Counted from the first letter of the stretch, positions 253 through 55,293 are shown. The stretch is DNA of 64,000 nucleotides from a bacterium (GCA_017458675.1 JAFTAM010000016.1:15-64014), one strand, 5' to 3'. Notes: generated by a model from the letters alone, not told the origin. Translations and numbers: made by a program.

Positions 253-3200
253 TTATTTGATTACAACCTTGACGCCTTCGCTGCGTCCGAAGGTCTCCGG
301 AGAATACATCTCTTCGGCCTTGGCGGGCGGCACGACGAACGTGCCGGGCACCGTGGCTCTGAAGATGAAGGAGTAATCGTACTTGCCTGCGGGCAGAATC
401 AGGCGGAAGGCTTCCGCTCTCTCGTCGCGCAGGTTCTGATGGTCGAACCAGGTGGGTCTCCACCACCACCAGCATCTGAACTTTTGCTTCTCGGTTTCCG
501 GCAGGCTCTCGGTCATCTTCAAAGCGCCGTTGAGTATCTCGCCGCCGGCAGGGATAGGCACAACCAAAGCCACATGAGCGCGGCGGGCGGGAGCGACCAT
601 CTCTGTCTTGCAGCGGATGCGGGCGCCCAGATTGAACTTCCAGCTTCCGTCGGGCTGCTGAACGGCGTCCTTAGGATCGTCGACGCCTTCATAGGTGCGG
701 GCCACCGTGAAGCCGGCCTCCAAAGCCTTGGGCGCCAGATCCTTCAAAGCGTAGCTCAGACCCAGACGGTAATAGAGACGTCCCTGCCCCTGCTTGTCCA
801 GAATCATGTTGACGTTGTCGCCTACATAATTCATGGGCACGAAGGTCTCCTGATTGATATTCTGCCGACCCTTATACTGATGGGAGCCGACATACTGATC
901 GCCCAGCCACATTCTCAAAACGAAGTCGGGCGTCACCGATTCGTAAGTATTGAAATACTTATTTAAAGCCATGATCACATGGGCGTTGTTGTGGGTATTG
1001 CCCCAGTGGCCCCTGCGTCTGCCGCTCTGCAGCGTCTTGACGACCTTGGGAATGATATCGGCCTTGGGATTGTCGGCTATCAGAGCCGAGAGAACCAGAG
1101 CCTCAGACTTCATATCCGATTCCAGAATCAGATAGCCGTCGCTTTCGGTGAATTTTCCGATATTGGCGGTAGAAGCGGTCTCGGAAATGCTGTTGTTGAG
1201 AACCCGGCGTATCTCTTTGGCCAGAGCCTCGTCCTTCTCGCGGATTACCGGCAGATACCAGCCCAGGATATCGATAGGCAGATCGGCTATCTTCTCCCTC
1301 TTAAGCCTGGCGGCAGCCGCGGCGTAATCGACCTTTTCGGCCTGCCAGAGCACGTTGTCGGCATAGGCCTCAATGGTCAGCTTATAGAGGTGAGAATATC
1401 TGGAAGGGATATGCCTGTCAATGCTGCGCAGGTAGTCCATAGCCCGATCATAATTTTTCTGAGGCACATTATAGCCGTGCTTTTTGGCTATAATCAAAGA
1501 CTGCGCGCAGTGGACGGTGATATAAGGCAGAACGTCCTTGCCCTCGACCCAGATGCCGAAGCCGCCGGAACGGTCCTGACGGGTCAGCATTCTGTCGATA
1601 TCGCGCTGAGTCTGAGCTCTGACGTCCTTGGCAGAAGGCAGGTCCTTGGTCTTGAACTGGTCCAGCACCTCAAAGAGCTCTGAAGTGGCGATAATCTTGG
1701 AAGCCAGCTGCTCGGAACATTCAAAGGGATACTCGTAGAGGTAGATAACCGCGTCGACCAGTTCCTGCAGAGCCGTTGAGGACGTGGTGATCTCCATACC
1801 GCCGAACTGGGTATAGGCGTCCTTGGGACGGGATACCGGCTGCACCAGAGTCTTAGTACCGTCGCAGACGCCGTAAGTTGCAAAGCCTTCGGTGGTGCAG
1901 GGAGTATATACGGGAATCGTGCACTTGTGACTGTCGGCATAGCTTCCCGATACCGCGGCAATCTGAACCATGCCCTTGCCGACCTGATCGGCCTCCATGG
2001 GCAGACGCACCTCGCGGCGGCTGTCGGCGGGGATCTCGCAGACTACGCCGTTACCGGCGCAGAACTTAAGGTTGGAAGCGGCGGCGGCCACCTCGACCTG
2101 CATAGGCTTGTTGGTCTGGTTGTGGAGAATGACCGGCAGATCAAATTTGTCGCCGAAATTGAGGAATCGGGGCGCGTTGGGACGTACCATCAGAGGCAGA
2201 CAGGCGGTCAGAGAACTTTCGTCCTTGCCGAAGCGCGTCTCCTTGTCGGCGGCCACGGCCACGATCCGATAGCGGGTCAGATTGTCGGGCAGCTTGACGC
2301 TGAGACTTACTCTGCCGGCGCTGTCAGTTATGCCGGCCGCTTCAAACAGAGCCAGCGCGTCGAAATTGGAGCGCACCGCGATCGGAGCGCCGGGCCTCTG
2401 AGCTGCGGGAGCGGCCGCCGACTTCATAACGGCGCTTCTTTCTGCCTGCGGCATTGCCATGCCCTTAGCCGCGGGAGCGGCGTTCATCGCCATTCTCGGA
2501 GCTTCCATCGGCACGGCGCCGGCGCAGCATTCGTCCTCAACCATGTCGGCCGAATAGTTGGCGCCGCCCATCATGCTGTACATTCTGCGTTCAGAACCGA
2601 AGTTTAACCGGGAATTCTTTTCGCGCTTAGGCTTCTGATTGTTGAGAAGAACGGTCGATCTCAACAGGCCGGTACTGATGCTTCCGCTGCGGCTCAAATA
2701 GAAGCTGGGCAGAGGATCTGCAATCGCGTGGCCGCACAGAGCCCATACGGAATCGTCAACCACCACTACGGCTGTCTGAACGTCGGGAACGGGCTTGCCG
2801 CTGCAGTCCTTAACCTCGACGCTGATCTTTGCCGTATCGCCGGGACGCAGCTTGTCGTTGTCGGGGCGAACCTTTACATCGAGCTTCTTCTCTTTAAGAG
2901 AGACCTTAAGGTTCAGAGTACCTCTGGCGCAGGCCGGACGCACCGTGCCCTTAACAGGCTTGCCCTCCGCATCCAGACGCTCGCTCTGTCCGTTTACCGT
3001 TACGGTCAGATTGACGTTGGGAAGCCACTTGGGATCGATGGGAATCTGCAGCTCGGCGGTGCTGTCACTGATGCTCAGGGGCTCGTTTTTGACAAAGCCG
3101 TCGCGGGCCAGAGAGTACATTCCGCTCACGCCCTTGAAAGGCGACTGCACCAAGATCTTAGCGGTTTCGCCGGGTTCGTATTCGTCCTTATCGGGTATCA

Positions 3201-6200
3201 GAGTCAATTCTTCAATGGTGTTTCTGACATTTAAGGGCGAGGCAAAATTGCCTACGCAAAAGGTCCTGACCGTACGGTTGCGACGGCCGTCCTTGTCCTG
3301 AGTTTCCGCGGTCAGACGCCACAGGCCGGCCTTCGGGAAGGTGACGCTGCGCTTGATGGCCTTCGTCTCGGAAACGGCATTGTCCAGGAAGGACTCCATA
3401 ATCCTCTTGGCCAGCTTGCCTTCTCTGTCGTAGGAATATTCAAGGCGATCCCATTTCAGCCTGACGGGACGTCCCGCCGCCGCCTTGCCGCCGATATCGG
3501 CCACGATATATTCAATATCGTAGGGTTTATTTTCCGAATACCGGTAAATATCGGACTTGACGCCGATATAGACTTCGGAAGGATGGACCAGAATCGTCTT
3601 ATTGCAGGCCCAGCGCTGACGGTTGAGATCGGAAACGGCTCCCTCTATCTTTATATTCACCGGAGCCGGAGGCTCGCAGGTACCGAAGCTGATATTGAGG
3701 GTCGATTTGCCCATAGCGTCAGTGGCGCTGTTCAGAGAGTGGGAAACGCCTTCAAATTCTTCTTCCTCGATCCACCAGCAGCGCCAGATCGGCCGCCAGA
3801 TTCCGAAGGTAAAGCCGCGCCAGCCCGGAGGAGAGAAATACGCCTTGCCGGACTTAGCGTTCCAGGCGATCTCGGCATTGGAAACGCTGCCGCCGGAGAA
3901 ATAGGAAGCCTTAGCCGTAACCGAACCTTCCTTGCCCATAATGTTGTCGGGCTCCGAAGCGGTCGCGGTCACTTCAAATTCAGGCCGGCGGAATTCCTGA
4001 ACGTCAAAGCTGTGAGTATAGGAGTAATTGTTTACGCCGTTATCGCGGGGCAGCTCAAAGGTAACCCGGCTGGAGCCCAGATTGATGTTGTCCGGCAGAG
4101 CCAGTTCCAGAGAGAAGCCGCCATAAGCGTCGGTAGTCAGGCTGCCTTCGCTTATCTTGGCATATCGGGAGTCTTTCAATTCCCAGCGAACGCTCTGAGA
4201 CTCGCGCACCAGCCTGGCATTGTTTTCAGGACCGTAATTCAGACGGCCCAGCCAGCCCTTGATGCTGACCTTCTCATTGGGGCGGTAAAGACCGCGGTCG
4301 TTAAAGACGTACCAGAGGAAGCGGTCATTGGGGTCCTGTCTGGTAATACGATCGACGTTATAAACCGTATCTCCGTTATATGAAGCTTCGGCATAATAAT
4401 TGCGTCTGCCGTCGGCGCGGTTGTCCAAAACCGCTGCGCCGGTTTTATCGGTGACGGCCTTCTGTCCGGCCAGGCGGACTTCAGCGCCGGCCTGAGGCAG
4501 ACCGGTCTTTAAATTGGTGACGACGCCGTAAACATGGTCTCTGTCAACATAAGTGTCCAAAGCCAGGTTTGAAGACTGCAGCCAGAGACTCTTGCTGATC
4601 GTGCCGCCGCCGTCGCTGTCATACTCCAAAGCCAGCAGGGCCAGACTGCGGCCGTCCTTAACGGCTTCGGAAACATCGATCTCGGTCTGAGTCAGCTCGC
4701 CGGGTTTGCCGTCAATGCTAATAGTTTTGTACCAGACCTCTTTGCCTACGCCGGCATAATCCTTGAGCTTCTTAAACGAGCGCAGACGCCATTCATCGTT
4801 ATACTTTTCCCAATCGCTTATATCGGCCTTGAACAGCTTGGCTCTCAGCTTTTTAATATTGGCAGTATAGACGGAATAGACCTTATTGTTGTCGGGATCG
4901 AGCATATTGACGCCCGAGCCGGGAGCATACATATAAGGCTCCGGCGGTCCGACCTTAAACGTGAAGGAGCCGGACTTGCCTAACTTCTGACCGTAAATAT
5001 CGGTAATTCCCGGATTTAAGCGGACCGTGTAAGTCGTATTGCACTTAGTGTCGGCGTTAATAATAAATGTGCTGCCGGAGGCAGAGGGAACGACTTCTTT
5101 AGCCTCGGGCTTTATGGAAGCGACGTATTTGTCGGCAGGGAACTTGCTGATATCGAGCTGATTGTTGAATCTGAAGGCAAAACTGTCGTTTTCGCTCAGA
5201 TAATCTCTGCCCCAGCGCCCGCTGCCGTTGGTGTCGACAACCTCCAGAGGAGGATAGGTAGAGAAGGTATAGGACTGATCGGCCGCCGTTTTCCGCGGGC
5301 CCTCCGCCGATACCGCTCCGGCCTGCACTACTACGCTGTATTTGGTGTCAGGCTCCATGTCGGAGTCAAGCTTAAAGATAATATAGCGATCCGCCGGAAC
5401 GTCCTTCAGCTTGGATTTAATGGCGGAGGCTCCTTCAGCCTTGGAATCATCCAGATCCGCCAGTTTAAGCGCGCTGACCGCAAACTTCTTTTCTTTCAGG
5501 AAGCCGCTCTTGCCGACATAGACAAAGGGCTGCAGCTTTTTAGCGTCGACCCTTTGATTGAAAACCAGAGCAAAGACAGGACTCACTCCCGTGATCTGTC
5601 CCGCGGCAGGATACCTGTCAATGATCTTCAGAGTTTCGGTAGAGAAACTGAAGCTGTAGGCTTTATCTATCTTTTTGCCCAAGGCGTCCTGCAGATCGGC
5701 GTCTACGCTGACCGTATACTCGGTGGACATGGGCAGATACTGCCCCTCGGGATCAAATATCGCCGTCTTTGTGCCTAACCAGCGCCAGGTTCCTTTTACC
5801 TCGGGCTTAATCGAGGCCGGAGCATGAGCGCGGCTCTCCGCCACGCCCTGCAGGCTGATCATGGGCTTGCTGAAGGAGAGCGTCATTCCCTGAACCATGC
5901 CGACCTCGCCCTCGGGGCTGTAGCGTATCAGCGAAGAAGGTTCGCTGTCTCCCGCCGCAGCTTCGGGCAGAGCGTTGATGGCCTTCAGCTCTTCGGGATC
6001 CGGAAAAGGAACCTTGACGGTCTCGCCTCCCCGGGGAGCGGGCAGACTCTTTTCACGGACGTTGAAATCTTTGCTCAGGTCCTCGCTCGGAGGCAGAGGC
6101 GGCAGACGGTGCAGAATTTCTTCCGCCCTGCTGCCGGAAAGCTTCTGAGCGGCAGCCAGCTGAGTAAGCTTAGAAGTCGATCCGGCTTCCTCGCCCACAG

Positions 6201-6402
6201 AGAGAGTAAAATCGAACTGCTGTTCCTTTTCTTCCTCGATCTGGCCGTTTCCGCCGGTCTTTGATTTGTTGTCTTCCATTGATACCTCACCGCCGGAACC
6301 GGGTCCGGGCTCTTTTGAAAAAACCTTATGTACGTTAAGGCAGATTACCAGTACAAATACTGCCAATACTGCACATAAACCGTATATCAAACCGGATTTC
6401 AT
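253..6402 (-). CDS. Alpha-2-macroglobulin family protein (2049 aa), N-terminal signal/anchor, CxEQ thioester-type motif (YPFECSEQ)
   Basis: Six-frame ORF; size and domain order typical of bacterial A2M (MG domains; thioester-like CSEQ; C-terminal receptor-binding-like region); hydrophobic N-terminus MKSGLIYGLCAVLAVFVLVI; AAGGGGG RBS 8 nt upstream of ATG. Confidence 0.85.
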   Translation of the reverse strand: MKSGLIYGLCAVLAVFVLVICLNVHKVFSKEPGPGSGGEVSMEDNKSKTGGNGQIEEEKEQQFDFTLSVGEEAGSTSKLTQLAAAQKLSGSRAEEILHRLPPLPPSEDLSKDFNVREKSLPAPRGGETVKVPFPDPEELKAINALPEAAAGDSEPSSLIRYSPEGEVGMVQGMTLSFSKPMISLQGVAESRAHAPASIKPEVKGTWRWLGTKTAIFDPEGQYLPMSTEYTVSVDADLQDALGKKIDKAYSFSFSTETLKIIDRYPAAGQITGVSPVFALVFNQRVDAKKLQPFVYVGKSGFLKEKKFAVSALKLADLDDSKAEGASAIKSKLKDVPADRYIIFKLDSDMEPDTKYSVVVQAGAVSAEGPRKTAADQSYTFSTYPPLEVVDTNGSGRWGRDYLSENDSFAFRFNNQLDISKFPADKYVASIKPEAKEVVPSASGSTFIINADTKCNTTYTVRLNPGITDIYGQKLGKSGSFTFKVGPPEPYMYAPGSGVNMLDPDNNKVYSVYTANIKKLRAKLFKADISDWEKYNDEWRLRSFKKLKDYAGVGKEVWYKTISIDGKPGELTQTEIDVSEAVKDGRSLALLALEYDSDGGGTISKSLWLQSSNLALDTYVDRDHVYGVVTNLKTGLPQAGAEVRLAGQKAVTDKTGAAVLDNRADGRRNYYAEASYNGDTVYNVDRITRQDPNDRFLWYVFNDRGLYRPNEKVSIKGWLGRLNYGPENNARLVRESQSVRWELKDSRYAKISEGSLTTDAYGGFSLELALPDNINLGSSRVTFELPRDNGVNNYSYTHSFDVQEFRRPEFEVTATASEPDNIMGKEGSVTAKASYFSGGSVSNAEIAWNAKSGKAYFSPPGWRGFTFGIWRPIWRCWWIEEEEFEGVSHSLNSATDAMGKSTLNISFGTCEPPAPVNIKIEGAVSDLNRQRWACNKTILVHPSEVYIGVKSDIYRYSENKPYDIEYIVADIGGKAAAGRPVRLKWDRLEYSYDREGKLAKRIMESFLDNAVSETKAIKRSVTFPKAGLWRLTAETQDKDGRRNRTVRTFCVGNFASPLNVRNTIEELTLIPDKDEYEPGETAKILVQSPFKGVSGMYSLARDGFVKNEPLSISDSTAELQIPIDPKWLPNVNLTVTVNGQSERLDAEGKPVKGTVRPACARGTLNLKVSLKEKKLDVKVRPDNDKLRPGDTAKISVEVKDCSGKPVPDVQTAVVVVDDSVWALCGHAIADPLPSFYLSRSGSISTGLLRSTVLLNNQKPKREKNSRLNFGSERRMYSMMGGANYSADMVEDECCAGAVPMEAPRMAMNAAPAAKGMAMPQAERSAVMKSAAAPAAQRPGAPIAVRSNFDALALFEAAGITDSAGRVSLSVKLPDNLTRYRIVAVAADKETRFGKDESSLTACLPLMVRPNAPRFLNFGDKFDLPVILHNQTNKPMQVEVAAAASNLKFCAGNGVVCEIPADSRREVRLPMEADQVGKGMVQIAAVSGSYADSHKCTIPVYTPCTTEGFATYGVCDGTKTLVQPVSRPKDAYTQFGGMEITTSSTALQELVDAVIYLYEYPFECSEQLASKIIATSELFEVLDQFKTKDLPSAKDVRAQTQRDIDRMLTRQDRSGGFGIWVEGKDVLPYITVHCAQSLIIAKKHGYNVPQKNYDRAMDYLRSIDRHIPSRYSHLYKLTIEAYADNVLWQAEKVDYAAAAARLKREKIADLPIDILGWYLPVIREKDEALAKEIRRVLNNSISETASTANIGKFTESDGYLILESDMKSEALVLSALIADNPKADIIPKVVKTLQSGRRRGHWGNTHNNAHVIMALNKYFNTYESVTPDFVLRMWLGDQYVGSHQYKGRQNINQETFVPMNYVGDNVNMILDKQGQGRLYYRLGLSYALKDLAPKALEAGFTVARTYEGVDDPKDAVQQPDGSWKFNLGARIRCKTEMVAPARRAHVALVVPIPAGGEILNGALKMTESLPETEKQKFRCWWWWRPTWFDHQNLRDERAEAFRLILPAGKYDYSFIFRATVPGTFVVPPAKAEEMYSPETFGRSEGVKVVIK

Positions 6403-6527
6403 AGTATTCCCCCTTTCTTATAAAAATAGTTTTACAGCTATTAAATACAATTTAAAGCAATAATTCCTTAAAATTTTAAGAAAAGCATTTAAAATGCTCA
6501 CTATAGTTTATTTTAACATAAAATGGC

Positions 6528-6590
6528 GCGCTTATGCGAAAAACAGCAGAATGCGGAGGCAAGATTCAACCCTGCGCTCAGAATGACATT
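6528..6590. repeat. Short fragment (3' ~60 bp) of the intergenic repeat family upstream of the A2M gene
   Basis: gcgaaaaacagcagaatgcgg...cctgcgctcagaatgacatt matches 3' end of element at 19245-19303. Confidence 0.35.
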
Positions 6591-6675
6591 AAGCCGGCTT
6601 GGAACGGCATCGGCCGGGCCAAGACTTTAAGTGAGAATCCGAGAATGAGCAGCCGCTTCAAAACACCGCAAATGT

Positions 6676-6707
6676 AAAAAGGCTGCCGCATATCCGCCGC
6701 GGCAGCC
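6676..6707 (-). terminator. Rho-independent terminator of the TGS/uridine-kinase-like gene
   Basis: Perfect 9-bp stem ggctgccgc/gcggcagcc (6681-6689 / 6699-6707) followed on minus strand by TTTTTAC. Confidence 0.6.
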
Positions 6708-6727
6708 TTAAAAGCTCAGATCAACAA

Positions 6728-8410
6728 CTAATATTTGTAGATGCTTCCGCCCAGGAATTCGCGCAGAACCGAATTTTTAGGAATCCATTCGTCGCTCATG
6801 GGCACCACCAGTGAGAGGAAGCGGAGCATATCCCGAGCCATGAGATAGGCCGGGCTGTCCTCATTAACTTCCATAAGATACTGCCAGCCGAAGACGCGGA
6901 ATACGGCTAATTCATAAGGCAGGGCCGAATTGAACATGGCGTCGGCCAGATGCTGATAGGGGAAGATATATTTATTCTCGCCCTTGCGTACGCTGGGCCA
7001 GCGTTTAATAGTGCTTTCCGCACTGACGCCGCGGTAGCGCCGGTCGCGGATAATTCTGCGCAGCAGACGGGCATAGGTGGTCGGCACGCGGGCGCCGAAG
7101 TCCAGATTTACCTGGGGCAGAGCGCTGACGAAAACAGAATAGGCGTTGGCCTTATCCACCGCCCCGGTTATTGCAGGATTAAGACCGTGAATTCCCTCAA
7201 TGAGCAAAATCTGATCCTCGCCGATCTGCATTTCGGTTTCCTGCTCCTTGGGAACGGGGCGCTGAGTCACAAAATCATAGTGAGGAATCGACGTAACTTT
7301 CCCTTCCACCAGAGAGCGCAGATCGCGTTTAATGCGCTCTACGTCCAGAGCCTCCAGAGCTTCGAAATCGTATTCGCCGTTTTCATCCTTGGGGCACTGT
7401 TCGGCGGGAATGTAGTAATCGTCCAGACCTACATAAATGGTTTCTTTGCCCATGGCCTTCAGATGAGTGGAAAGACGCCGGACCGTACTGGTCTTGCCTG
7501 AGCTGGAAGGACCGGAAACGAAAACGACCTTGACCGTTTCCCGTTTGATAATTTCAGAAGCGATCTGGGCAATGCAGATCTCCTGCAGGGTTTCAGACAC
7601 CTGTACCAGATCCTGGCCGCCTCCGTCTAAAATAACCTTGTTCAGCTTGCCGACCGTGCCCACCGACATGCGCTTATTCCAAGTTCTAGCCTGTTTGGCC
7701 GCTCCCAGCATAAAGTCCTTAAGCTCCTTTGCGGGCAGTTCTTTGCCTTCTTCGGTTATCAATATGCCTTCGGGAATGCCGACAATTTTAATTCCCTTCA
7801 GGAAACCGGCGTTAGGAACAAAGGGACCGTAAGCTAAATCGGTATAATCGCCGATGGTCACCGTGCCAAAGCTGTCGCCTACCCAGCCGTGCATGAGCTG
7901 ACGCCGATCGCCTTCAGGATCCTCAACCATACGCAGCGCAGCGGCGGCAGAAATAGCATGAGTCACCATAGGAACGCACTGAAAGATCATCTGCTGATAC
8001 TGCTCGTTAAGCTTTTCACCTAAAGCTACCGTATCGCCGCCGCCTTTTACCTCAAAGAAAAGCTGACTGTGCAGAGACTGGCCGACCTCCAGGCGCATAT
8101 TGGGATCGACCGCCTTAGCCGCGGCAAAAAGCAGAGCAGATGCGCTGCGCGTGATGATATGGCGTCCAAAATAATTATCTTTCAAAATCGGCTTGGCGAC
8201 GCAGCTGCAGACTACCCTATGAGTGAGATTTACCACCTGGTGGTCGACAACGGCTCCGACTATTCCCTTTTGAGCGGCAGCTTTAAAATAATCCTGCTGA
8301 GAGCTGTCAGGCCCAAGTTCGGCTCCGGTCTCAGCTATCAGAGGCATGTATATACCCCTTCCGTATTCTATTTCCCGGATACCGTTGGGTAAGGTCACTT
8401 GGCATAACAT
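6728..8410 (-). CDS. Uridine kinase/phosphoribulokinase-family P-loop nucleoside kinase with N-terminal TGS-like domain
   Basis: Walker A FVSGPSSSGKTST; N-terminal QVTLPNGIREIEYGRG resembles ThrRS/TGS fold; 560 aa as in the known TGS+PRK fusion family. Confidence 0.7.
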   Translation of the reverse strand: MLCQVTLPNGIREIEYGRGIYMPLIAETGAELGPDSSQQDYFKAAAQKGIVGAVVDHQVVNLTHRVVCSCVAKPILKDNYFGRHIITRSASALLFAAAKAVDPNMRLEVGQSLHSQLFFEVKGGGDTVALGEKLNEQYQQMIFQCVPMVTHAISAAAALRMVEDPEGDRRQLMHGWVGDSFGTVTIGDYTDLAYGPFVPNAGFLKGIKIVGIPEGILITEEGKELPAKELKDFMLGAAKQARTWNKRMSVGTVGKLNKVILDGGGQDLVQVSETLQEICIAQIASEIIKRETVKVVFVSGPSSSGKTSTVRRLSTHLKAMGKETIYVGLDDYYIPAEQCPKDENGEYDFEALEALDVERIKRDLRSLVEGKVTSIPHYDFVTQRPVPKEQETEMQIGEDQILLIEGIHGLNPAITGAVDKANAYSVFVSALPQVNLDFGARVPTTYARLLRRIIRDRRYRGVSAESTIKRWPSVRKGENKYIFPYQHLADAMFNSALPYELAVFRVFGWQYLMEVNEDSPAYLMARDMLRFLSLVVPMSDEWIPKNSVLREFLGGSIYKY

Positions 8411-17762: not shown

Positions 17763-19010
17763 ATGTCTTTTGCTGCAAGCAGTGATCTGCATAAAAAAAA
17801 CAGCATCACCCGCTGGGATTTATTTGCCTGTGTCGCCGGACGTCCGGAGGGCATAGCTTTAACCAGGCTGGCTCACGTACTCCATGTGGAAAGAGAACGG
17901 TCCCTGATTGTTCCCCTGGGCGAGCTGGAGGACGAAGAGCTTATCGTCTGCGACAGCAGAGATCACTATATACTAAGCAGCAAAGAGGCAGCAAAGAAAC
18001 TGCGCTATACGATAGCTTACGCGCTGGCTTACGACTACGACTACAACGCCTACTTCAGCGAAGACATGGTGGCCTTCCTGAAAAAAGCCTACCGCAGCGA
18101 TCATTTCAGCACCGGCGATGTTTCCGAAAAGCTTATGAAGCCGGAGCTTATCACCAGGCTGGTTCATAACGACCTGCTTTTAATTTATAAATACGAACCT
18201 TTTACTGGACGTATAGTTGAAAATCCGTTTTTAGACGGCTTATGCGACTATCTGAAAATTAAGCGCGCCAAAGCCTTTTTCTTCCGCAAAAAGATCTCCA
18301 TGGGGAGCGTTTTGGAGGGGCGCAGGGAACAGCTCGACAGCAGCGACAGTCAGAACCTCTCCGCCGCCCGTAAATTTTTCTCCGGCCGCAATTTTAAAAA
18401 TGTCAACTGGGGGTTAACAGATAACGGAAAGTATATCAAGGAGAGCGTCGAGCGCGAGGATTCGGAGTTATTTGACCCCGAATCGAGCGCTTGCTTCCAG
18501 AAGGCCTGGAACGCAATGCAGGCCAACGTCAGCCGCTCGTCCAAGCTGAGCGTAGACGCTATAAAGCTTTACCATAAGCTGACCATGGCCAACACCGATA
18601 TCCCCAGCACTTATCGCGACCATGACGTAATGATCGGCAACAACCCCAATTTTAAAGCAGCCGTACCTTCGGAAATTCCCTATAAGCTGTCGAACCTGGT
18701 AAATTATCTGGCCGCTGCCAGCCCCTCGGACTTTGAATCGGTTCTGGACGTCTGCGCCTACGCCTACAATGAGTTCATCCATATTCATCCCTTCTCCGAC
18801 GGCAACAGCCGCACCGCCAGAATAGTCCTGGCCCATATCCTCAATCTCTTCCATATGCCGTTTGAAAAGATCCCTCACAGCTTCGAGGTGAGGTTCTTAA
18901 TCGTTACCAAGGGTTTAAAAACCAGAGACGACAACGAACTGAAGTATGTTTTGGAAGAGATATATTTAAACTGCATGAACCGCCTGGAGTTGGAAAAGGT
19001 GATGGGCTGA
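17763..19010 (+). CDS. Fic/DOC family protein with slightly degenerate Fic motif (HPFSDGNSRTAR)
   Basis: Fic core HPFxDGNxR at residues ~340-350; 415 aa. Confidence 0.85.
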   Translation: MSFAASSDLHKKNSITRWDLFACVAGRPEGIALTRLAHVLHVERERSLIVPLGELEDEELIVCDSRDHYILSSKEAAKKLRYTIAYALAYDYDYNAYFSEDMVAFLKKAYRSDHFSTGDVSEKLMKPELITRLVHNDLLLIYKYEPFTGRIVENPFLDGLCDYLKIKRAKAFFFRKKISMGSVLEGRREQLDSSDSQNLSAARKFFSGRNFKNVNWGLTDNGKYIKESVEREDSELFDPESSACFQKAWNAMQANVSRSSKLSVDAIKLYHKLTMANTDIPSTYRDHDVMIGNNPNFKAAVPSEIPYKLSNLVNYLAAASPSDFESVLDVCAYAYNEFIHIHPFSDGNSRTARIVLAHILNLFHMPFEKIPHSFEVRFLIVTKGLKTRDDNELKYVLEEIYLNCMNRLELEKVMG

Positions 19011-49745: not shown

Positions 49746-51596
49746 TTGAAAACGCAGACCACTATGACAAACACCACCTGCAAAAATCAAAAGCTTGTAG
49801 CCTGGGTCGAGAAGATCGCCCAGCTTTGCACTCCGGACAAGATTCACTGGTGCGACGGCAGCCAGGAAGAGTATGACCGCCTCTGCCAGGAAATGGTCGA
49901 ATCCGGAACCTTTATCAGATTAAACCCCGAAAAGCGTCCCAACAGCTTTTTGGCCCGTTCCGACCCCGGAGATGTAGACCGAGTCGAAGACCGCACCTTC
50001 ATCTGCACGACCAAGCGTGAAGACGCCGGCCCCACCAACAACTGGATGGCCCCCGACAAGATGAAGGAAATCCTGCGCGGCCACTTCAAGGGCTCCATGA
50101 AGGGCCGTACCATGTACGTCATTCCCTTCAGCATGGGTCCCTTAGGCTCGCACATCGCCCAGATCGGCGTCGAAATCACCGACAGTCCTTACGTTGTCTG
50201 CAACATGCGCATTATGACCCGCATGGGCGCCAAGGTTCTGGACATCCTCGGCGAAGACGGCGAGTTCGTCCCCTGCCTGCACAGCGTCGGCGCTCCCCTT
50301 GAGCCCGGACAGAAAGACGTCGCCTGGCCCTGCGACGCCGACAATAAGTACATCGTTCACTTCCCCGAAGAGAACTCCATCGTATCCTACGGCTCCGGCT
50401 ACGGCGGCAACGCTCTGCTCGGCAAGAAGTGCCTGGCTCTGCGCATCGCCACCAACATGGCCCACCGCGAGGGCTGGCTGGCCGAGCACATGCTCATCCT
50501 GGGCGCCGAGTCTCCCGAAGGCGAAACCACCTATGTGGCCGCCGCTTTCCCCAGCGCCTGCGGAAAGACCAACTTCGCCATGCTCATTCCTCCCGAGAGC
50601 TTTAAAGCCAAAGGCTGGAAGATCTGGACCATCGGCGACGACATCGCCTGGATCAAGCCCGGCAAAGACGGACGCTTCTACGCCATCAACCCTGAAAACG
50701 GCTTCTTCGGCGTAGCTCCCGGAACCTCCGAAAAGTCCAACTACAACGCCATGGCCAGCTGCCGCGCCAACACCATCTTCACCAACGTGGCTCTGACCGA
50801 CGACGGCGACGTCTGGTGGGAAGGCATGACCAAAGAGGCTCCCGCTCACCTGATCGACTGGCAGGGCGCCGACTGGACGCCTGACTGCGGACGTCCCGCC
50901 GCTCACCCCAACTCCCGCTTCACCGCGCCCATTCATCAGTGCCCTTCGATCTCTCCCGAGACCGAAAACAGCAACGGCGTGCCCATCTCCGCCTTCATCT
51001 TCGGAGGCCGCATGAGCACCACCATGCCTCTGGTATATCAGGCCTTTAACTGGGCTCACGGCGTTTATATGGCAGCCACCGTCGGTTCCGAAAAGACCGC
51101 CGCGGCCAACGGCAAGATCGGCGAAGTCCGCCGCGACCCGTTCGCCATGCTGCCCTTCTGCGGCTACAACATGGGCGACTACTTCGATCACTGGTTCAAT
51201 ATGGGCCGCAAGAATACCATGCCCATTCCCATCTTCCGCGTCAACTGGTTCCTCAAGAAGGACGGCAAGTTCTTATGGCCCGGCTTCGGCGACAATATGC
51301 GCGTCCTGAAGTGGATCATCGACAGAGTTCACGGCCGCGCCAAGGCGATCGAGAGCCCCGTCGGCTTAATGCCCACCTATGAGGACATCGACTGGACCGG
51401 CCTCGACATCACCAGAGAAGACTTCGACGTCCTGATGACCGTCGACAAGAAAGCCTGGAAGAATGAGCTGCTGCTTCAGGAAGAGCTCTTCATGCGCCTC
51501 AGCGAGCGTCTGCCCCGCGAGATGATCATGGAGCGCCAGCAGTTCCTCAGCCGCCTCAACCGTTCCAACGACGTCTGGACTCCTCCTCACAACTAA
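49746..51596 (+). CDS. pckG: Phosphoenolpyruvate carboxykinase (GTP-dependent)
   Basis: Characteristic GTP-PEPCK sequence throughout (FPSACGKTN kinase-1a P-loop, [36 protein letters not shown]). Confidence 0.95.
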
Positions 51597-51621
51597 GGAC
51601 AGAGGTCTCTGAGTGAATAAA

Positions 51622-51656
51622 ACGCCTGTCTTAAAACAAAGGCAGGCGTTTTTTTT
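51622..51656 (+). terminator. pckG rho-independent terminator (island-proximal copy)
   Basis: acgcctgtctt/aaggcaggcgt stem followed by T8. Confidence 0.7.
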
Positions 51657-51746
51657 GCAGAAGGCGGATTCTCCGCCGCCGTTCAGAAAGGCGGCAAAAT
51701 TTCACCGGCCGCCCGAAGCTGTACTCATACGGCAGACACACGGCGG

Positions 51747-52121
51747 TTATTCAGCTTCAGCAATATCATACGGGAATTCCGGTTCTGTTCTGAAGTCCGC
51801 TCCGAATTCAGAAAAAGCTCTGACATACTTTATTATCTCTTTCGCCTTCCCGCTTATGACAAAATCCGAACTTTGCAGCAGGGATTTTGCCTCAAGATAA
51901 TTGCACTGCCTGAGCTTAGCCAGGCACTTGATCACATTGAGCTGCGGGCGGTCCGTTTTTGGAATGGTTACCGTATAAACGGTTTTATCAGCTTTAATCG
52001 GCGAAAAATATGTTGTCGCCCAACCCCATCCACACTTAGGACAAAGCATCCCACAGGAGCCAGACTCATGATAATATTCCATCAATTCACCGCATTTTTC
52101 ACAACAAGTAGTTTCAGTCAC
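51747..52121 (-). CDS. Small zinc-ribbon protein with C-terminal domain resembling ribosomal protein L7/L12 C-terminal fold
   Basis: CxxC...CxxC (CEKCG...CPKCG); C-terminal NVIKCLAKLRQCNYLEAKSLLQSSDFVISGKAKEIIKYVRAFSEFGADF patterns like L7/L12 CTD (NVIKvvRe.tGLgLKEAKdLVe.aP.vvKegvsKeEAeeiKkkLEeaGAkV). Confidence 0.5.
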   Translation of the reverse strand: MTETTCCEKCGELMEYYHESGSCGMLCPKCGWGWATTYFSPIKADKTVYTVTIPKTDRPQLNVIKCLAKLRQCNYLEAKSLLQSSDFVISGKAKEIIKYVRAFSEFGADFRTEPEFPYDIAEAE

Positions 52122-52633
52122 TGCTTTCCTCCTGGATAAAATTTTTTAAAACATCCTCTATTACTATAATCTGGCTTCTTAGGTGCATCTTGCCTACTTC
52201 CGGCTACGAAATACCTACCATTTGGATAAACCCACACTTTTTTTGTAGGTGCTTCAACGATAACGTTTAGTTTGTTAGCAAGATTTTGAGCAAAACCTTC
52301 AGATTCTGCACCAGTGTCACAAGAGAACAAACGAATTGATTTGTTTTTTAAATCTGAGTTTTTCTTAAATATCTTAGAGGCCATTCGATGATCAATTTCA
52401 ATAGAAATGCCATTATTCTGAATCTCAATAGTAGTAGAAGTTCCATGAGCAATAACATCATAAAATCCGTTTCTGTCAATATCTTTGCGTTTACGGATAA
52501 ATTTACTGAAATTATCATTAAAAGACATATAATCTACACTACCAGGAACAGCCAAACTACCATATGTGTTTGAATAAATTCCACTTTTTCCAGCTCCCAT
52601 TTTTACATCCGCCTCTTTCTGCAAGAAATCCAA
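52118..52633 (-). CDS. Hypothetical 171-aa protein with His...Cys dyad arrangement (VIAHGT ... RLFSCDTGA) suggestive of a caspase-like (clan CD) peptidase/toxin domain
   Basis: Conserved-looking HG then xCxxG spacing typical of the caspase/gingipain/CPD fold; overlaps neighbours by 4 and 31 nt (operon). Confidence 0.45.
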   Translation of the reverse strand: MDFLQKEADVKMGAGKSGIYSNTYGSLAVPGSVDYMSFNDNFSKFIRKRKDIDRNGFYDVIAHGTSTTIEIQNNGISIEIDHRMASKIFKKNSDLKNKSIRLFSCDTGAESEGFAQNLANKLNVIVEAPTKKVWVYPNGRYFVAGSRQDAPKKPDYSNRGCFKKFYPGGKQ

Positions 52634-53277
52634 TCAGGATAATGCACAAATTTAGTTTTGTTAATAACATCTGCAAAAATGGAATCAGGCATTGCACCAT
52701 ATACAAGTACAACTTCTGGCAGTAATTCTTCTAACATTGCCTTAAGACCATGTTTAAAAAAATACTTATCTTCTCTGCTACGAATTCCTCCATAAGTGCC
52801 TATAGACACAATACTATGCTTCGGAATTCCAAGGAATGCGAATTTTTCTGGAAGTATTTTTGTAGTATAACTACGTTCATCACCCCAGCGAATATTCGGT
52901 ATTACATAAACGCCACGTTTTTGATAATAATAGCCCACTGCACGATTTCTATAAGTATTTGACATCTGTGCTTGCAGAGGCATGTCACGATACAAAGAAT
53001 TATCTAATGTAACAATACCTGCAAAAGTTTTTATCAATTCATAGTACTTCTCAGGATTTTTTAAAATATCACTAAACTCAATATCATATTCATAAAACGT
53101 GACAAATTCAGAATGATCGCCACTTTGAGAAATTTTAGAAAATGGAATCACACGTTTAGGGATAATAATTTCCGATGGTTTCTCAATACAAGGCATTTCA
53201 AGAATACCATCAAACTTTGCGCCTTCAACAAATTCAGGATTAAAGCCATCATCAATTATAATTTTATGTTTAGGCAT
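52603..53277 (-). CDS. Hypothetical 224-aa protein (island cargo, first gene of three-gene operon)
   Basis: AT-rich ORF; no domain confidently recognised. Confidence 0.5.
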   Translation of the reverse strand: MPKHKIIIDDGFNPEFVEGAKFDGILEMPCIEKPSEIIIPKRVIPFSKISQSGDHSEFVTFYEYDIEFSDILKNPEKYYELIKTFAGIVTLDNSLYRDMPLQAQMSNTYRNRAVGYYYQKRGVYVIPNIRWGDERSYTTKILPEKFAFLGIPKHSIVSIGTYGGIRSREDKYFFKHGLKAMLEELLPEVVLVYGAMPDSIFADVINKTKFVHYPDWISCRKRRM

Positions 53278-53499
53278 AATAGCTCCATTCTACTTAAAAA
53301 CGCAACATAAAACCGTATCAATCAATAAAGTACACAGATTATTAATTGACAAAATAATATAAATGTGCTATTATGCAATATAGTTATATGTGTTCAATAG
53401 CACTTAACATTAAAACGCATGTTTTTACTGCGGCAACAGTTAATTCGTGCGTTTTTCTATTTTACAGGTAAAACATTGCAATTTAAGTATAGATAATAA

Positions 53500-54597
53500 T
53501 TAATCTCTAAATAAAGAAAGAAGATCGTAGTAAAAATACAAACGATTTCTTTTTTTACCATCTGTAAATAATAACCCCCTTTCAACCATAATATTCAAAT
53601 ATCTATTAATTGTCGCTAAAGGAATGCCTGTGAATTCATGTAAAAGTCTAGCATCAAATATCGGCATCTGATATATCCCATCAATGATTTTAACTATACT
53701 GCTAGATGATTTAATAAGTCCACATGCTATTTCCATATGCTTTGAATATAACTCATTAACATTAGAAATTATTTGAACATATTTTTTACATTGCTTTGCG
53801 ATAATATCTAAAAAAAATTTAATCCAATCATTCCATTTTTCAGGCAAACGCGTATCATTCAACATTTTGTAATATTTAAGTTGATCTCTTTCAAGCGCCT
53901 CACTAATAAAGAAATAAGGAAGTTCTAACTGTGATTGAAAATAAAGATATAAAGGAATCAAAATCCTGCCAACACGTCCATTTCCATCACTAAAAGGATG
54001 AATAGTTTCAAATTGCGCATGAACAATAGCAACTCTAATCAATGGATGAATTCTATCTGTAGGTGAATTTAAATATTGAATAAAATCTTTCATTAGCTGT
54101 GATACTCGTTCTGGCTCTGGTGGAATATAAACAAGTGTTCCATCATTTTTTCCAACATAATTTTGATGATCTCTATATTCGCCTACAGAATTTTCATTTT
54201 TTCTTACTTTTCCACTCATTAATTGTTTATGTATAATCTTAAAAAAATCATCAGAAAAATCCCCTCTTTTAAGCATATGAAACCCAATTTGCGTAGCTGT
54301 AAAATAATTATCTACTTCATTTAAATTTTTATTATCCTCATCACGTACAATTTTATTAATTAATACACCATCTAAAGTAGCTTGAGTTCCTTCCATCATA
54401 GAAGATTTCATAGCTTCTTTTTGTTGTAAAGTTGGCATAAACCAATTTGGATTAACTTTACTGTCTTTAATTTTTTCCTTATAAACTTCAAACATCGATA
54501 CTGCCTGAATTAATTCATCAAGAAATACACTATAATCCAGAATTCCATAGGCTTCCGGTAATGGTTTTGGCGCATAAGGTTTTTTCATATTACTCAA
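53500..54597 (-). CDS. Fic family protein, class II-like (canonical HPFSDGNGRVGR motif plus N-terminal inhibitory SxxxEG motif SSMMEG)
   Basis: HPFxDGNGRxxR at ~res 200; [ST]xxxE[GN] at ~res 65; AT-rich codon usage unlike the host genes. Confidence 0.85.
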   Translation of the reverse strand: MSNMKKPYAPKPLPEAYGILDYSVFLDELIQAVSMFEVYKEKIKDSKVNPNWFMPTLQQKEAMKSSMMEGTQATLDGVLINKIVRDEDNKNLNEVDNYFTATQIGFHMLKRGDFSDDFFKIIHKQLMSGKVRKNENSVGEYRDHQNYVGKNDGTLVYIPPEPERVSQLMKDFIQYLNSPTDRIHPLIRVAIVHAQFETIHPFSDGNGRVGRILIPLYLYFQSQLELPYFFISEALERDQLKYYKMLNDTRLPEKWNDWIKFFLDIIAKQCKKYVQIISNVNELYSKHMEIACGLIKSSSSIVKIIDGIYQMPIFDARLLHEFTGIPLATINRYLNIMVERGLLFTDGKKRNRLYFYYDLLSLFRD

Positions 54598-54720
54598 TAT
54601 TTTATCTCCTAAATCATAGAATACTCTAATATAGAATCATTGTCAATAGTTTTTGAGCGGGATTTTCTTTTTTTTTATTTATAAAGTCAATATCAATACA
54701 TTATTGTCATAAAATATTCT

Positions 54721-55233
54721 GTCGGTTCCGAAAAGACCGCCGCGGCCAACGGCAAGATCGGCGAAGTCCGCCGCGATCCGTTCGTCATGCTGCCTTTCTG
54801 CGGCTACAACATGGGCGACTACTTCGACCACTGGTTCAATATGGGCCGCAAGAATACCATGCCCGTTCCCATCTTCCGCGTCAACTGGTTCCTCAAGAAG
54901 GACGGCAAGTTCTTATGGCCCGGCTTCGGCGACAATATGCGCGTCCTGAAGTGGATCATCTACAGAGTTCACGGTCGCGCCAAAGCTGTTGAGAGCCCCG
55001 TCGGCTTAATGCCCACCTATGAAGACATTGACTGGACCGGCCTCGACATCACCAGAGAAGACTTCGACATACGGATGACCGTCGACAAGAAGGCCTGGAA
55101 GAATGAGCTGCTTCAGGAAGAGCTCTTCATGCGCCACAGCGAGCGTCTCCCCTGCGAGATGATCATGGAACGCCAGCAGTTCCTCAGCCGCCTCAATCGT
55201 TCCAACGACCTCTGGACTCCTCCTCACAACTAA
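54721..55233 (+). pseudogene. Displaced, decaying duplicate of the pckG 3' end (encodes only the last 148 codons)
   Basis: ~97% nt identity to 51081-51596, with a 3-bp deletion and several nonsynonymous changes (IDRVHG to IYRVHG, VLMTV to [15 protein letters not shown] to [10 protein letters not shown]). Confidence 0.8.
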
Positions 55234-55258
55234 GGACAGAGGTCTCTGAGTAAATAGA

Positions 55259-55293
55259 ACGCCTGTCTTCAAATCGAGGCAGGCGTTTTTTTT
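55259..55293 (+). terminator. Duplicated pckG terminator (distal copy)
   Basis: acgcctgtctt/gaggcaggcgt stem followed by T8. Confidence 0.6.

Follow-up and report, generated by a model that had tools for sequence, protein, structure and literature searches.

Within a 64,000-nucleotide stretch of bacterial DNA (GCA_017458675.1, JAFTAM010000016.1:15-64014; hereafter the window) lies a short island of foreign composition with four genes, all on the minus strand, which in their order of reading encode a class II Fic protein, a protein of the DUF4417 family, a 160-amino-acid (aa) protein with the predicted fold of a caspase-like peptidase, and a 124-aa zinc-ribbon protein (Table 1). The subject of this report is the module formed around the last three, which comparison with related loci presents as a polymorphic toxin-immunity system having DUF4417 as a new constant partner; that toxin, immunity protein and DUF4417 protein belong together in one architecture is, in our judgement, highly probable. 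The original prediction, made from the sequence, had placed four open reading frames (ORFs) on the minus strand of foreign-looking DNA, and this is confirmed, for the ORFs (51747-52121, 52118-52633, 52603-53277 and 53500-54597) as for the difference in GC content. What changes is the start of the second gene, which is the ATG at 52600 (MGAGKSG...), 2 nucleotides (nt) past the DUF4417 stop, as in the NCBI record (hypothetical protein IJT93_00795, 160 aa) and in all homologues; the TTG at 52633, from which a length of 171 aa had been derived, is supported by neither. Two gene overlaps had also been described, of 4 and 31 nt: the first, a GTGA shared by the toxin stop and the immunity start downstream of an AGGAGG ribosome-binding site, stands and couples the 124-aa gene translationally to the toxin gene, while the second came from extending the ORF to the upstream TTG and falls away.

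Table 1. Features of the island and its borders, in window coordinates.
Feature	Position	Strand	Remarks
Immunity protein (predicted), 124 aa, GTG start	51747..52121	-	C4 zinc ribbon and predicted L7/L12-CTD-like domain; ends PEFPY
Toxin (predicted), 160 aa	52118..52600	-	Clan-CD, C80/CPD-like cysteine peptidase domain (predicted); His52-Gly53, Cys94
Leader codons, MGAGKSGIYSNTYGSL	52553..52600	-	Common to unrelated toxins after DUF4417 genes
DUF4417 protein, 224 aa, ATG start	52603..53277	-	PF14386, E 2e-46; constant module component
AT-rich spacer between Fic and DUF4417 genes	53278..53499	-	27% GC; promoter-like site 53397-53370, minus strand
Class II Fic protein, SoFic-like, 365 aa	53500..54597	-	Fic_N, Fic core HPFSDGNGR, SSMMEG, C-terminal region
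Foreign island	51657..54720	.	3,064 bp, 33.1% GC vs 51.6% for the window
Direct repeat, copy 1	51081..51656	+	3' end and terminator hairpin of intact pckG; abuts the island's left end
Direct repeat, copy 2	54721..55293	+	Displaced, decaying pckG 3' fragment and terminator copy

The 160-aa protein scores 13.6 bits against the Pfam profile PF11713, whose gathering cutoff is 23.8, and a word-indexed search with it returned 85 protein clusters, nearly all of about 160 aa and without Pfam annotation. None of the three small proteins has a match in NCBIfam, and comparison of single proteins and of family profiles with the sequences of solved structures gave chance-level matches alone; one of these, between the toxin and the reverse transcriptase of retron Eco8 (E 0.1), was dismissed as such. 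An AlphaFold2 (AF2) model of the toxin built on 44 homologues has a predicted local distance difference test (pLDDT) score of 81, its only disordered part being residues 1-19 at the leader end (pLDDT <50). Compared with the PDB by Foldseek, the model finds the MARTX CPD of V. cholerae as its best match (3gcd; E 3e-4, probability 1.0), followed by SAVED-CHAT, GPI transamidase, the CPD of TcdB/TcdA (entries 8tl0, 7wld and 3pee coming next after 3gcd), and caspases, so that clan-CD peptidases dominate the top matches. Sub-threshold matches to Peptidase_C80 in 15 of 44 members of the toxin family (best E 5e-4), and to DUF4347 in 16 of the 44, agree with the fold result and are independent of it. 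His52-Gly53 follow a strand of the model (47-50) and Cys94 another (89-92), and none of the three residues varies among 76 unique sequences (25 of them fused, 51 stand-alone), so that the caspase/CPD-like fold originally guessed from a His-Gly...Cys spacing has been borne out in both model and family; H52 and C94 would form the putative catalytic dyad. In sequence terms the protein appears C80-like without belonging to the Pfam C80 family, and it is probably the stand-alone version of a domain, of predicted caspase/CPD-like peptidase fold, that forms the C-terminus of polymorphic toxins.

Peptidase C80 (the CPD of MARTX and TcdA/TcdB) and the DUF4347 domain of adhesins, both of them self-processing domains, are thus the best structural and sub-threshold sequence matches of the toxin, and share with it an alpha/beta clan-CD fold. 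The arrangement of C80, in which His-Gly follows one strand and Cys the strand after it, is also found here, the two being 42 residues apart in the window toxin and 45-49 in C80 enzymes. The window protein differs from C80 in being about 40 residues shorter, in remaining below Pfam gathering thresholds, in having a dedicated immunity protein, and in that it would act as a toxin on another protein, whereas C80 is a self-cleaving domain activated by inositol hexakisphosphate (InsP6).

A scan of 185,579 species genomes yielded 151 relatives of the toxin, spread over Firmicutes, Mollicutes, Actinobacteria, Bacteroidaceae and Proteobacteria and including cultured Pseudomonas and Brevibacillus. Analysis was carried out on the best 80 of these 151 loci, and the locus sets in general are the best 80 matches of pattern-based scans, not a census. 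In these 80 loci the domain either makes up a protein of its own, of about 160 aa, or ends a large protein, as in a Fil_haemagg protein of 3,421 aa (P. congelans), an RHS protein of 2,918 aa (a Clostridium) and RHS fragments of 669 and 471 aa. Fused toxins begin at about profile position 12-16, and the leader of the stand-alone form therefore stands in place of the large N-terminal region; neither a signal peptide nor a trafficking domain was found on the 160-aa toxin. An exhaustive search with a hidden Markov model (HMM) gave 2,873 representative clusters with a toxin-related domain (E<=1e-3), in many of which this domain is C-terminal in proteins of 200-1,400 aa. Five giants of 3,000-6,800 aa (P0209, P0210, P0211, P0216 and P0266) have 4-7 tandem internal copies, presumably CPD/DUF4347-type repeats of surface proteins.

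The toxin domain has a faithful neighbour. In 78 of the 80 loci the zinc-ribbon gene is next after it, the remaining two ending at contig ends, so that the dedicated partner follows stand-alone toxins and those at the tips of Rhs/FhaB proteins alike in every complete locus. Because its gene always follows the toxin domain, the 124-aa protein is predicted to be the cognate immunity partner. Its cysteines C7, C10, C27 and C30 are invariant in the family, which also has a C-terminal P-x-F-P-Y motif. Residues ~45-112 probably resemble ribosomal protein L7/L12's C-terminal domain (CTD): the Pfam profile Ribosomal_L12 (PF00542) matches 10 of 40 family members (best E 7e-6), though the window protein alone only at E 0.1, and hhalign comparison of the family with the L7/L12 CTD, using hand-entered L12 sequences, gave a probability of 77-85% and P values of 6e-6 to 2e-5 over 69-71 columns. 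Both the L7/L12-like pattern that the original prediction had noticed in this half of the protein and its toxin-immunity reading of the cassette are thereby strengthened, the latter by comparative genomics, with the toxin domain at the C-terminal tip of Rhs/FhaB-like proteins and the zinc-ribbon gene always next. Zhang et al. (2012) list a 'Tox-Caspase' with the immunity proteins Imm36 and Imm57 (PMC3482391), and the rows of their table consulted for Tox-Caspase contain no zinc-ribbon immunity family. Two side observations concern this gene pair. In a Pseudomonas locus (L059, 14259-14893) an orphan truncated toxin domain of 90 aa with a full zinc-ribbon immunity gene lies 3.8 kb downstream of the main toxin/immunity pair, as is typical of the orphan cassettes of contact-dependent inhibition (CDI) and Rhs systems; and in four loci (L005-L007 and L083) an extra ORF of 81 aa comes after the immunity gene.

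The gene upstream of the toxin, which like the other two small proteins had been thought to match no nameable family, does have a name: the 224-aa protein is DUF4417 (PF14386), scoring 158 bits against a cutoff of 28.9 over profile positions 2-182 of 183. Its association with the toxin is specific to one form of the latter. A DUF4417 gene is present in the loci of 37 of 40 stand-alone leader toxins with intact N-terminus and of 0 of 24 fused ones (Fisher 1e-14), and either abuts the toxin gene upstream or lies just past the immunity gene. Close homologues of the window DUF4417 (57-71% identical) precede other toxin/small-gene pairs, namely EndoU_bacteria with a 126-aa protein in a metagenome-assembled genome of Lentisphaeria, DUF6883, classed as a BECR RNase (bioRxiv 10.64898/2026.08.28.747851), with DUF4926, and PBECR1 with a 112-aa protein. 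These otherwise unrelated toxins begin alike, with a leader of some 15 residues whose consensus is M-G-x-G-x-x-G-x-[YF]-x-x-T-x-G (compare MGAGKSGIYSNTYGS in the window toxin, MGTGKPGRYLNTRGS in an EndoU toxin and MGAGISGNYTNTKGS in a DUF6883 toxin). At least 10 unrelated toxin clusters stand behind the leader, each followed by its own small gene; they include C80-like (27 loci), EndoU (23) and DUF6883 (14) toxins as well as Ntox50, PBECR1 and several clusters without a Pfam match. Among 64 non-redundant metagenome loci anchored on DUF4417, 39 have an ORF with the strict leader whose start lies between -20 and +60 nt relative to the DUF4417 stop and 22 others have one with a variant leader, and when 1.9 Mb of locus DNA was translated in six frames, 89 of the 93 strict-leader matches at start codons fell within 2.5 kb of a DUF4417 gene. 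From these comparisons DUF4417 and the shared toxin leader emerge as the likely organising principle of the module.

Several loci vary this plan. Two leader cassettes of different families surround a single DUF4417 gene at L026 (~8.4-11.8 kb) and L064 (~10.0-12.7 kb); several loci have the order toxin-immunity-DUF4417 in place of DUF4417-toxin-immunity; and in one lineage (L005-L007 and L083) an intact toxin/immunity pair is preceded by a DUF4417 gene shortened to an ORF of 177 aa (5481-6014 in L005), for which gene callers give 61 aa. From position 636 of L133, the leader and a DUF6883-like N-terminus form part of a 373-aa ORF with an unrelated C-terminal region, which may be a chimera, a frameshift or a larger leader-tagged cargo. 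Read-through or frameshifting that would fuse DUF4417 to the toxin was considered and rejected, the relative frames being variable (in frame in L001, out of frame by one or two bases in the window and L104). A resemblance of the leader segment GIYSNT to the EF-Tu switch I segment, which we take to be GITINT, is too short for significance, probably due to chance, and was not used.

The DUF4417 protein itself gives the impression of an enzyme, or of a specific binding site, and not of a passive scaffold, to judge from its many invariant acidic and polar residues (among them D92, D98 and N128-x-R130-W131-x-D133-E134-R135). Its AF2 model (pLDDT 88.5) alternates strands and helices in a TIM-barrel-like manner. 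Foldseek comparison with the PDB gave weak TIM-barrel matches led by tRNA-guanine transglycosylase (TGT; E 0.02-0.2, query TM-scores 0.41-0.50), and comparison with viral structures (BFVD) gave, after three homologues, phage 'queuine tRNA-ribosyltransferases' (E 3.5e-3, probability 0.99), so that a relationship to TGT is suggestive only. Dpd systems pair a ParB-like DpdB with a TGT-like DpdA. The likeness to them consists in a TIM-barrel-like model with TGT as the best non-self match, and in a fusion to ParB that mirrors the DpdA-DpdB pairing: gp28 of IPP48 joins DUF4417 to a ParB-CTPase fold, as DUF4417 proteins of phages often do (bioRxiv 10.1101/2025.10.10.680097). The differences are that DUF4417 has no detectable sequence similarity to DpdA/TGT and marginal scores, and that Dpd systems have no counterpart of the link with protein toxins; 7-deazaguanine synthesis genes were, incidentally, not noted in the loci examined. 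A Brig1-type DNA glycosylase was also considered for DUF4417 and set aside, no linking paper having been found and the UDG-like structural matches being short and weak.

Upstream of DUF4417 the module has a slot that is filled in different ways. In 58 of 114 non-redundant DUF4417 loci, the two upstream ORFs encode an XRE-type helix-turn-helix (HTH) protein and a Peptidase_M78 (ImmA/IrrE) protein, in 7, the window included, the slot holds a class II Fic protein, and in 0 of the 114 do the two occur together. Pairs of the ImmR/ImmA and CapH/CapP type de-repress mobile-element and defence operons after DNA damage. The XRE-HTH and ImmA/IrrE (COG2856) pairs of the 58 sister loci lie directly upstream of DUF4417 on the same strand; the window differs in having Fic in place of the pair. 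All 13 strong SoFic-like matches in the 1.9 Mb of collected loci adjoin a DUF4417 module, and the module Fic proteins, 34-54% identical to that of the window, all have both Fic motifs. Because Fic fills the slot in 7 of 114 loci and every one of the 13 strong matches adjoins a module, it appears to recur as a module component, occupying a regulator's place, and not to be an accidental neighbour.

The window Fic has the core motif IHPFSDGNGR (PF02661, E 8e-23) and a Fic_N domain (PF13784, E 3e-12), and its inhibitory SxxxEG motif, SSMMEG at residues 65-70, is N-terminal to the core on the same chain; the PADLOC SoFic model matches residues 5-364 at E 4e-99, whereas the NCBIfam SoFic equivalog (NF046030) scores 132 bits against a cutoff of 550 bits. 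These matches uphold the class II assignment first made from the two motifs and indicate a SoFic-like protein below equivalog level. It has the HPFxDGNGR motif and the N-terminal (S/T)xxxE(G/N) inhibitory helix in common with SoFic, resembles it in length and C-terminal region (PMC3667792, PMC12249575), and differs in its score, in its place in the regulator slot of a DUF4417 module, and in lacking the companion of the E. coli protein. SoFic is reported to be toxic and an effector of abortive infection, whose antitoxin in E. coli, AS1 (47 aa), is encoded downstream (PMC12249575); beside the window Fic an ORF of the AS1 type was sought in the spacer at 53278..53499 and the idea was dropped for want of a credible candidate. 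SoFic AMPylates EF-Tu switch I, and in Shewanella its C-terminal winged HTH binds its own promoter (bioRxiv 10.64898/2026.07.09.737422), which a Fic protein in regulator position would fit; in the window protein the HTH matches of the C-terminal region are weak, and a promoter-like site lies by the gene at 54646-54618. The SoFic literature searched does not describe a linkage to a DUF4417 toxin module. A second Fic-like ORF of 415 aa, at 17763-19010 on the plus strand and far from the island, matches an HMM of module-associated Fic proteins at E 4e-7.

How the island may have come to its present place is suggested by its borders. It is inserted behind the intact pckG gene (49746-51596) for a GTP-dependent phosphoenolpyruvate carboxykinase (PEPCK), between two direct repeats of 576 and 573 bp that are 94.4% identical; the ORF of the second copy (54787-55233, 148 aa) has non-conservative changes and a 1-codon deletion, and the native downstream flank runs on directly from it. 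This suggests entry by a single crossover of a circular element bearing its own pckG 3' end (Campbell-type). Scans for tRNA genes and Rfam RNAs found none in the window, and a tRNA attachment site is therefore not involved; the island contains no integrase or transposase, and an exact look-up of the PEPCK protein, for an empty (uninterrupted) site, gave no record. The same arrangement recurs on two contigs, L188 and L189, that were assembled separately and come from different samples of ruminant gut, which rules out an assembly artefact. The immunity gene has 44% GC and the toxin, DUF4417 and Fic genes 29-34%, a contrast in view of which the cassette may be a mosaic.

Genes flanking the modules are mostly housekeeping ones. 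A sample of 140 module neighbours contains no secretion-system, terminase, portal or capsid families; it includes specificity subunits of Type I restriction-modification systems (4), HipA (2) and resolvases (2). The C80-like toxin family has no relative in the 2.9 million viral contigs of IMG/VR, against a phage origin of that family. Leader-toxin modules do occur on some viral contigs (L095-L098 and L100), that of L100 next to two serine integrases and an endolysin. L096 has two DUF4417 genes, a phage-type copy by the large terminase gene (1432-3633, minus strand) and one in a divergent Fic-DUF4417-leader-toxin-small-ORF module (4447-7470, plus strand). DUF4417 is present in 492 phage records, and in none of them is a recognised toxin-immunity pair annotated alongside. 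The late operon of streptococcal and lactococcal phages begins with it, a variable ORF coming next and terS-terL-portal thereafter, and in cluster A mycobacteriophages it is gene 1. In phage A25 (gp23; L193, 4654-5037) and in Javan91_0030 (L194, 4654-5022) the ORF overlaps the end of DUF4417 and starts MSDKGDKYGTEYST and MSKKGKPYGTEYTT, respectively, loosely resembling the toxin leader (G-x-Y-x-x-T); no immunity-like gene follows this variable ORF in either, terS being next. In Mycobacterium phage Pukovnik (L195, 366-1873) gp1, DUF4417, is annotated 'nuclease' and gp2 is a small HEMGH zinc-metallopeptidase-like protein.

Each building block of the module is of a known kind: a Fic protein, a Tox-Caspase tip, an immunity gene. 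As in the polymorphic toxin systems CDI, Rhs, LXG and MuF, for which Zhang et al. (2012) list at least eight delivery routes, variable C-terminal toxins are each followed by a cognate immunity gene (PMC3482391; PMC5576092), the families are the same (Tox-Caspase-like, EndoU_bacteria, Ntox50 and BECR RNases), cassettes are swapped next to a conserved N-terminal element and occur as orphans and in arrays, and the window toxin domain is elsewhere the tip of Rhs and Fil_haemagg proteins. Unlike in those systems, the window toxin is a separate protein of 160 aa, the conserved element is about 15 residues long, and in place of a secretion or trafficking domain the constant partner is DUF4417, a cytoplasmic protein of its own, with no secretion apparatus nearby. 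Toxin-antitoxin-chaperone (TAC) systems consist of three genes transcribed together, and a SecB-like chaperone recognises a short conserved extension of their antitoxin. The present module likewise has three genes, a short conserved extension on one partner and a third, constant protein that would recognise it, but it is the toxin that bears the extension here, and the third protein looks enzyme-like. The literature searched does not describe DUF4417 with toxins (neither Zhang 2012 nor Jamet 2017 is one of the papers mentioning it), nor was the combination of a separate constant DUF4417, a universal 15-residue leader and an XRE/ImmA-or-Fic slot, widespread as it is, found described.

What such a package might do can be proposed from its parts. 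The immunity protein would neutralise the protease by tight binding, DUF4417 would recognise the leader and control the toxin's fate, and the upstream regulator, Fic or XRE/ImmA, would gate expression, Fic possibly being a second effector too. Carried by small mobile islands and prophage ends, the module would act inside the cell that produces it: upon stress or phage infection, toxin in excess of, or escaping from, its immunity protein would cleave an essential cytoplasmic target and bring about an abortive-infection-like growth arrest. The L7/L12-like domain of the immunity protein is a hint at the translation apparatus as a possible site of protease action, and translation as the target area is a speculation to which the EF-Tu-directed activity of Fic lends itself as well. 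We favour this intracellular reading because the module is self-contained, occurs in monoderm and diderm phyla, is found mostly outside prophages and has mobile stress- or defence-type regulators at its head; as a description of the whole package, an autonomous stress- or phage-triggered growth-arrest module with the parts as assigned here, we consider it evenly balanced between right and wrong. Several points weigh against it. The fold assignments are weak in absolute terms, with modest TM-scores (0.35-0.44) for the toxin and non-significant to marginal values for DUF4417 (E 0.02 in the PDB, 3.5e-3 in BFVD). Defence genes are only mildly represented near the modules, and PADLOC (2023/2.0) has no match at E<=1 for DUF4417, toxin or immunity protein. 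DUF4417-leader binding, toxicity, neutralisation and defence are themselves predictions, and a co-expressed immunity gene, swappable cassettes and the arrays of L026 and L064 are classic signs of an exported inter-bacterial toxin.

The last point leads to the strongest alternative, namely that the module is an inter-bacterial weapon, in which DUF4417 is a trafficking adaptor through which toxins bearing the leader dock to a phage particle or DNA-packaging machine, from which they are injected into cells lacking the immunity protein. A conserved N-terminal element, swappable cassettes and toxin domains like those of CDI, Rhs and MuF systems, whose MuF toxins include EndoU and Ntox50 (PMC5576092), are what it leads one to expect, as are multi-cassette arrays round one DUF4417 gene; in phages DUF4417, often ParB-fused, precedes terS-terL-portal or is gene 1 of cluster A, with a variable ORF next each time; leader-toxin modules are found on some viral contigs; and occurrence in monoderms and diderms fits a carrier independent of the envelope. 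Yet most modules are isolated islands amid housekeeping genes, without phage structural genes, a setting that contrasts with that of muf genes, 96% of which are in prophages or prophage remnants (PMC5576092). IMG/VR contains no relative of the C80-like family, phage genes, a signal peptide and secretion genes are all absent from the window island, and no recognised delivery route, whether type V, VI or VII secretion systems (T5SS, T6SS, T7SS), Sec, Photorhabdus virulence cassettes (PVC) or MuF, was found for the 160-aa toxin, either on the protein itself or among the 140 neighbours; that DUF4417 is a virion or packaging protein is moreover a conjecture. We consider this alternative unlikely, while giving it more weight than the others. 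A bolder version, in which DUF4417 would be a leader-directed enzyme, a TGT/DpdA-like TIM barrel joined to ParB in phages, that reads the leader as a universal tag and loads or covalently couples tagged effectors onto DNA or the phage packaging machine, is a long shot; if true, it would amount to a new route for moving toxins or effectors between cells, and would explain why DUF4417 and a variable ORF stand at the head of the streptococcal packaging operon and why DUF4417 is gene 1 in cluster A.

Alternatively, the parts may be independent and merely share insertion hot-spots, toxin and immunity gene being a selfish, TA-like addiction cassette by which the island is stabilised, DUF4417 a DNA or RNA enzyme, for instance one of phage descent for base exchange or modification in the manner of TGT/DpdA, and Fic a lone SoFic defence. 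SoFic has been reported as a single-gene defence system (PADLOC model; PMC12249575), none of the 492 phage records with DUF4417 has a toxin-immunity pair annotated beside it, a TGT-like fold and ParB fusions suggest a nucleic-acid function apart from toxins, and the toxin-immunity pair occurs without DUF4417 in Rhs and CDI proteins. What independence leaves unexplained is that at least 10 unrelated toxins with one leader are found only beside DUF4417, that in nearly all loci the toxin gene starts at, or overlaps with, the end of the DUF4417 gene, that DUF4417 accompanies 37 of 40 leader toxins as against 0 of 24 fused ones, and that every strong Fic match in 1.9 Mb adjoins a module; we therefore hold it to be improbable. 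Least credible of all, and to our minds very improbable, is that the 160-aa protein, in the manner of most CPD/caspase-like domains of large toxins and adhesins, is a peptidase for processing or maturation, with the zinc-ribbon protein as its substrate or regulator, as the 4-7 internal tandem copies of related domains in the giants and the self-processing nature of DUF4347 and C80 might suggest. Although most Tox-Caspase domains are releasing peptidases according to Zhang et al. (2012) (PMC3482391), the domain in the close family is the very last one of Rhs/FhaB proteins with no toxin behind it, a dedicated small gene is always next, orphan copies included, and in DUF4417 loci the 160-aa protein occupies the position of the bona fide toxins EndoU and Ntox50.

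The autonomous growth-arrest module thus remains our preferred reading, and the architecture on which it is built, the more firmly founded of the two, has consequences of its own. The zinc-ribbon protein with its L7/L12-CTD-like domain may represent a new family of immunity proteins against caspase-like toxins. The physical linkage of a SoFic-type Fic protein with a further toxin module has implications for SoFic's regulation and use. The 15-residue leader offers a searchable tag with which new toxin families may be mined, several leader clusters being without a Pfam match, and DUF4417, a family known from the sequences of some 500 phages and from metagenomic loci by the thousand, would here be given its first context.

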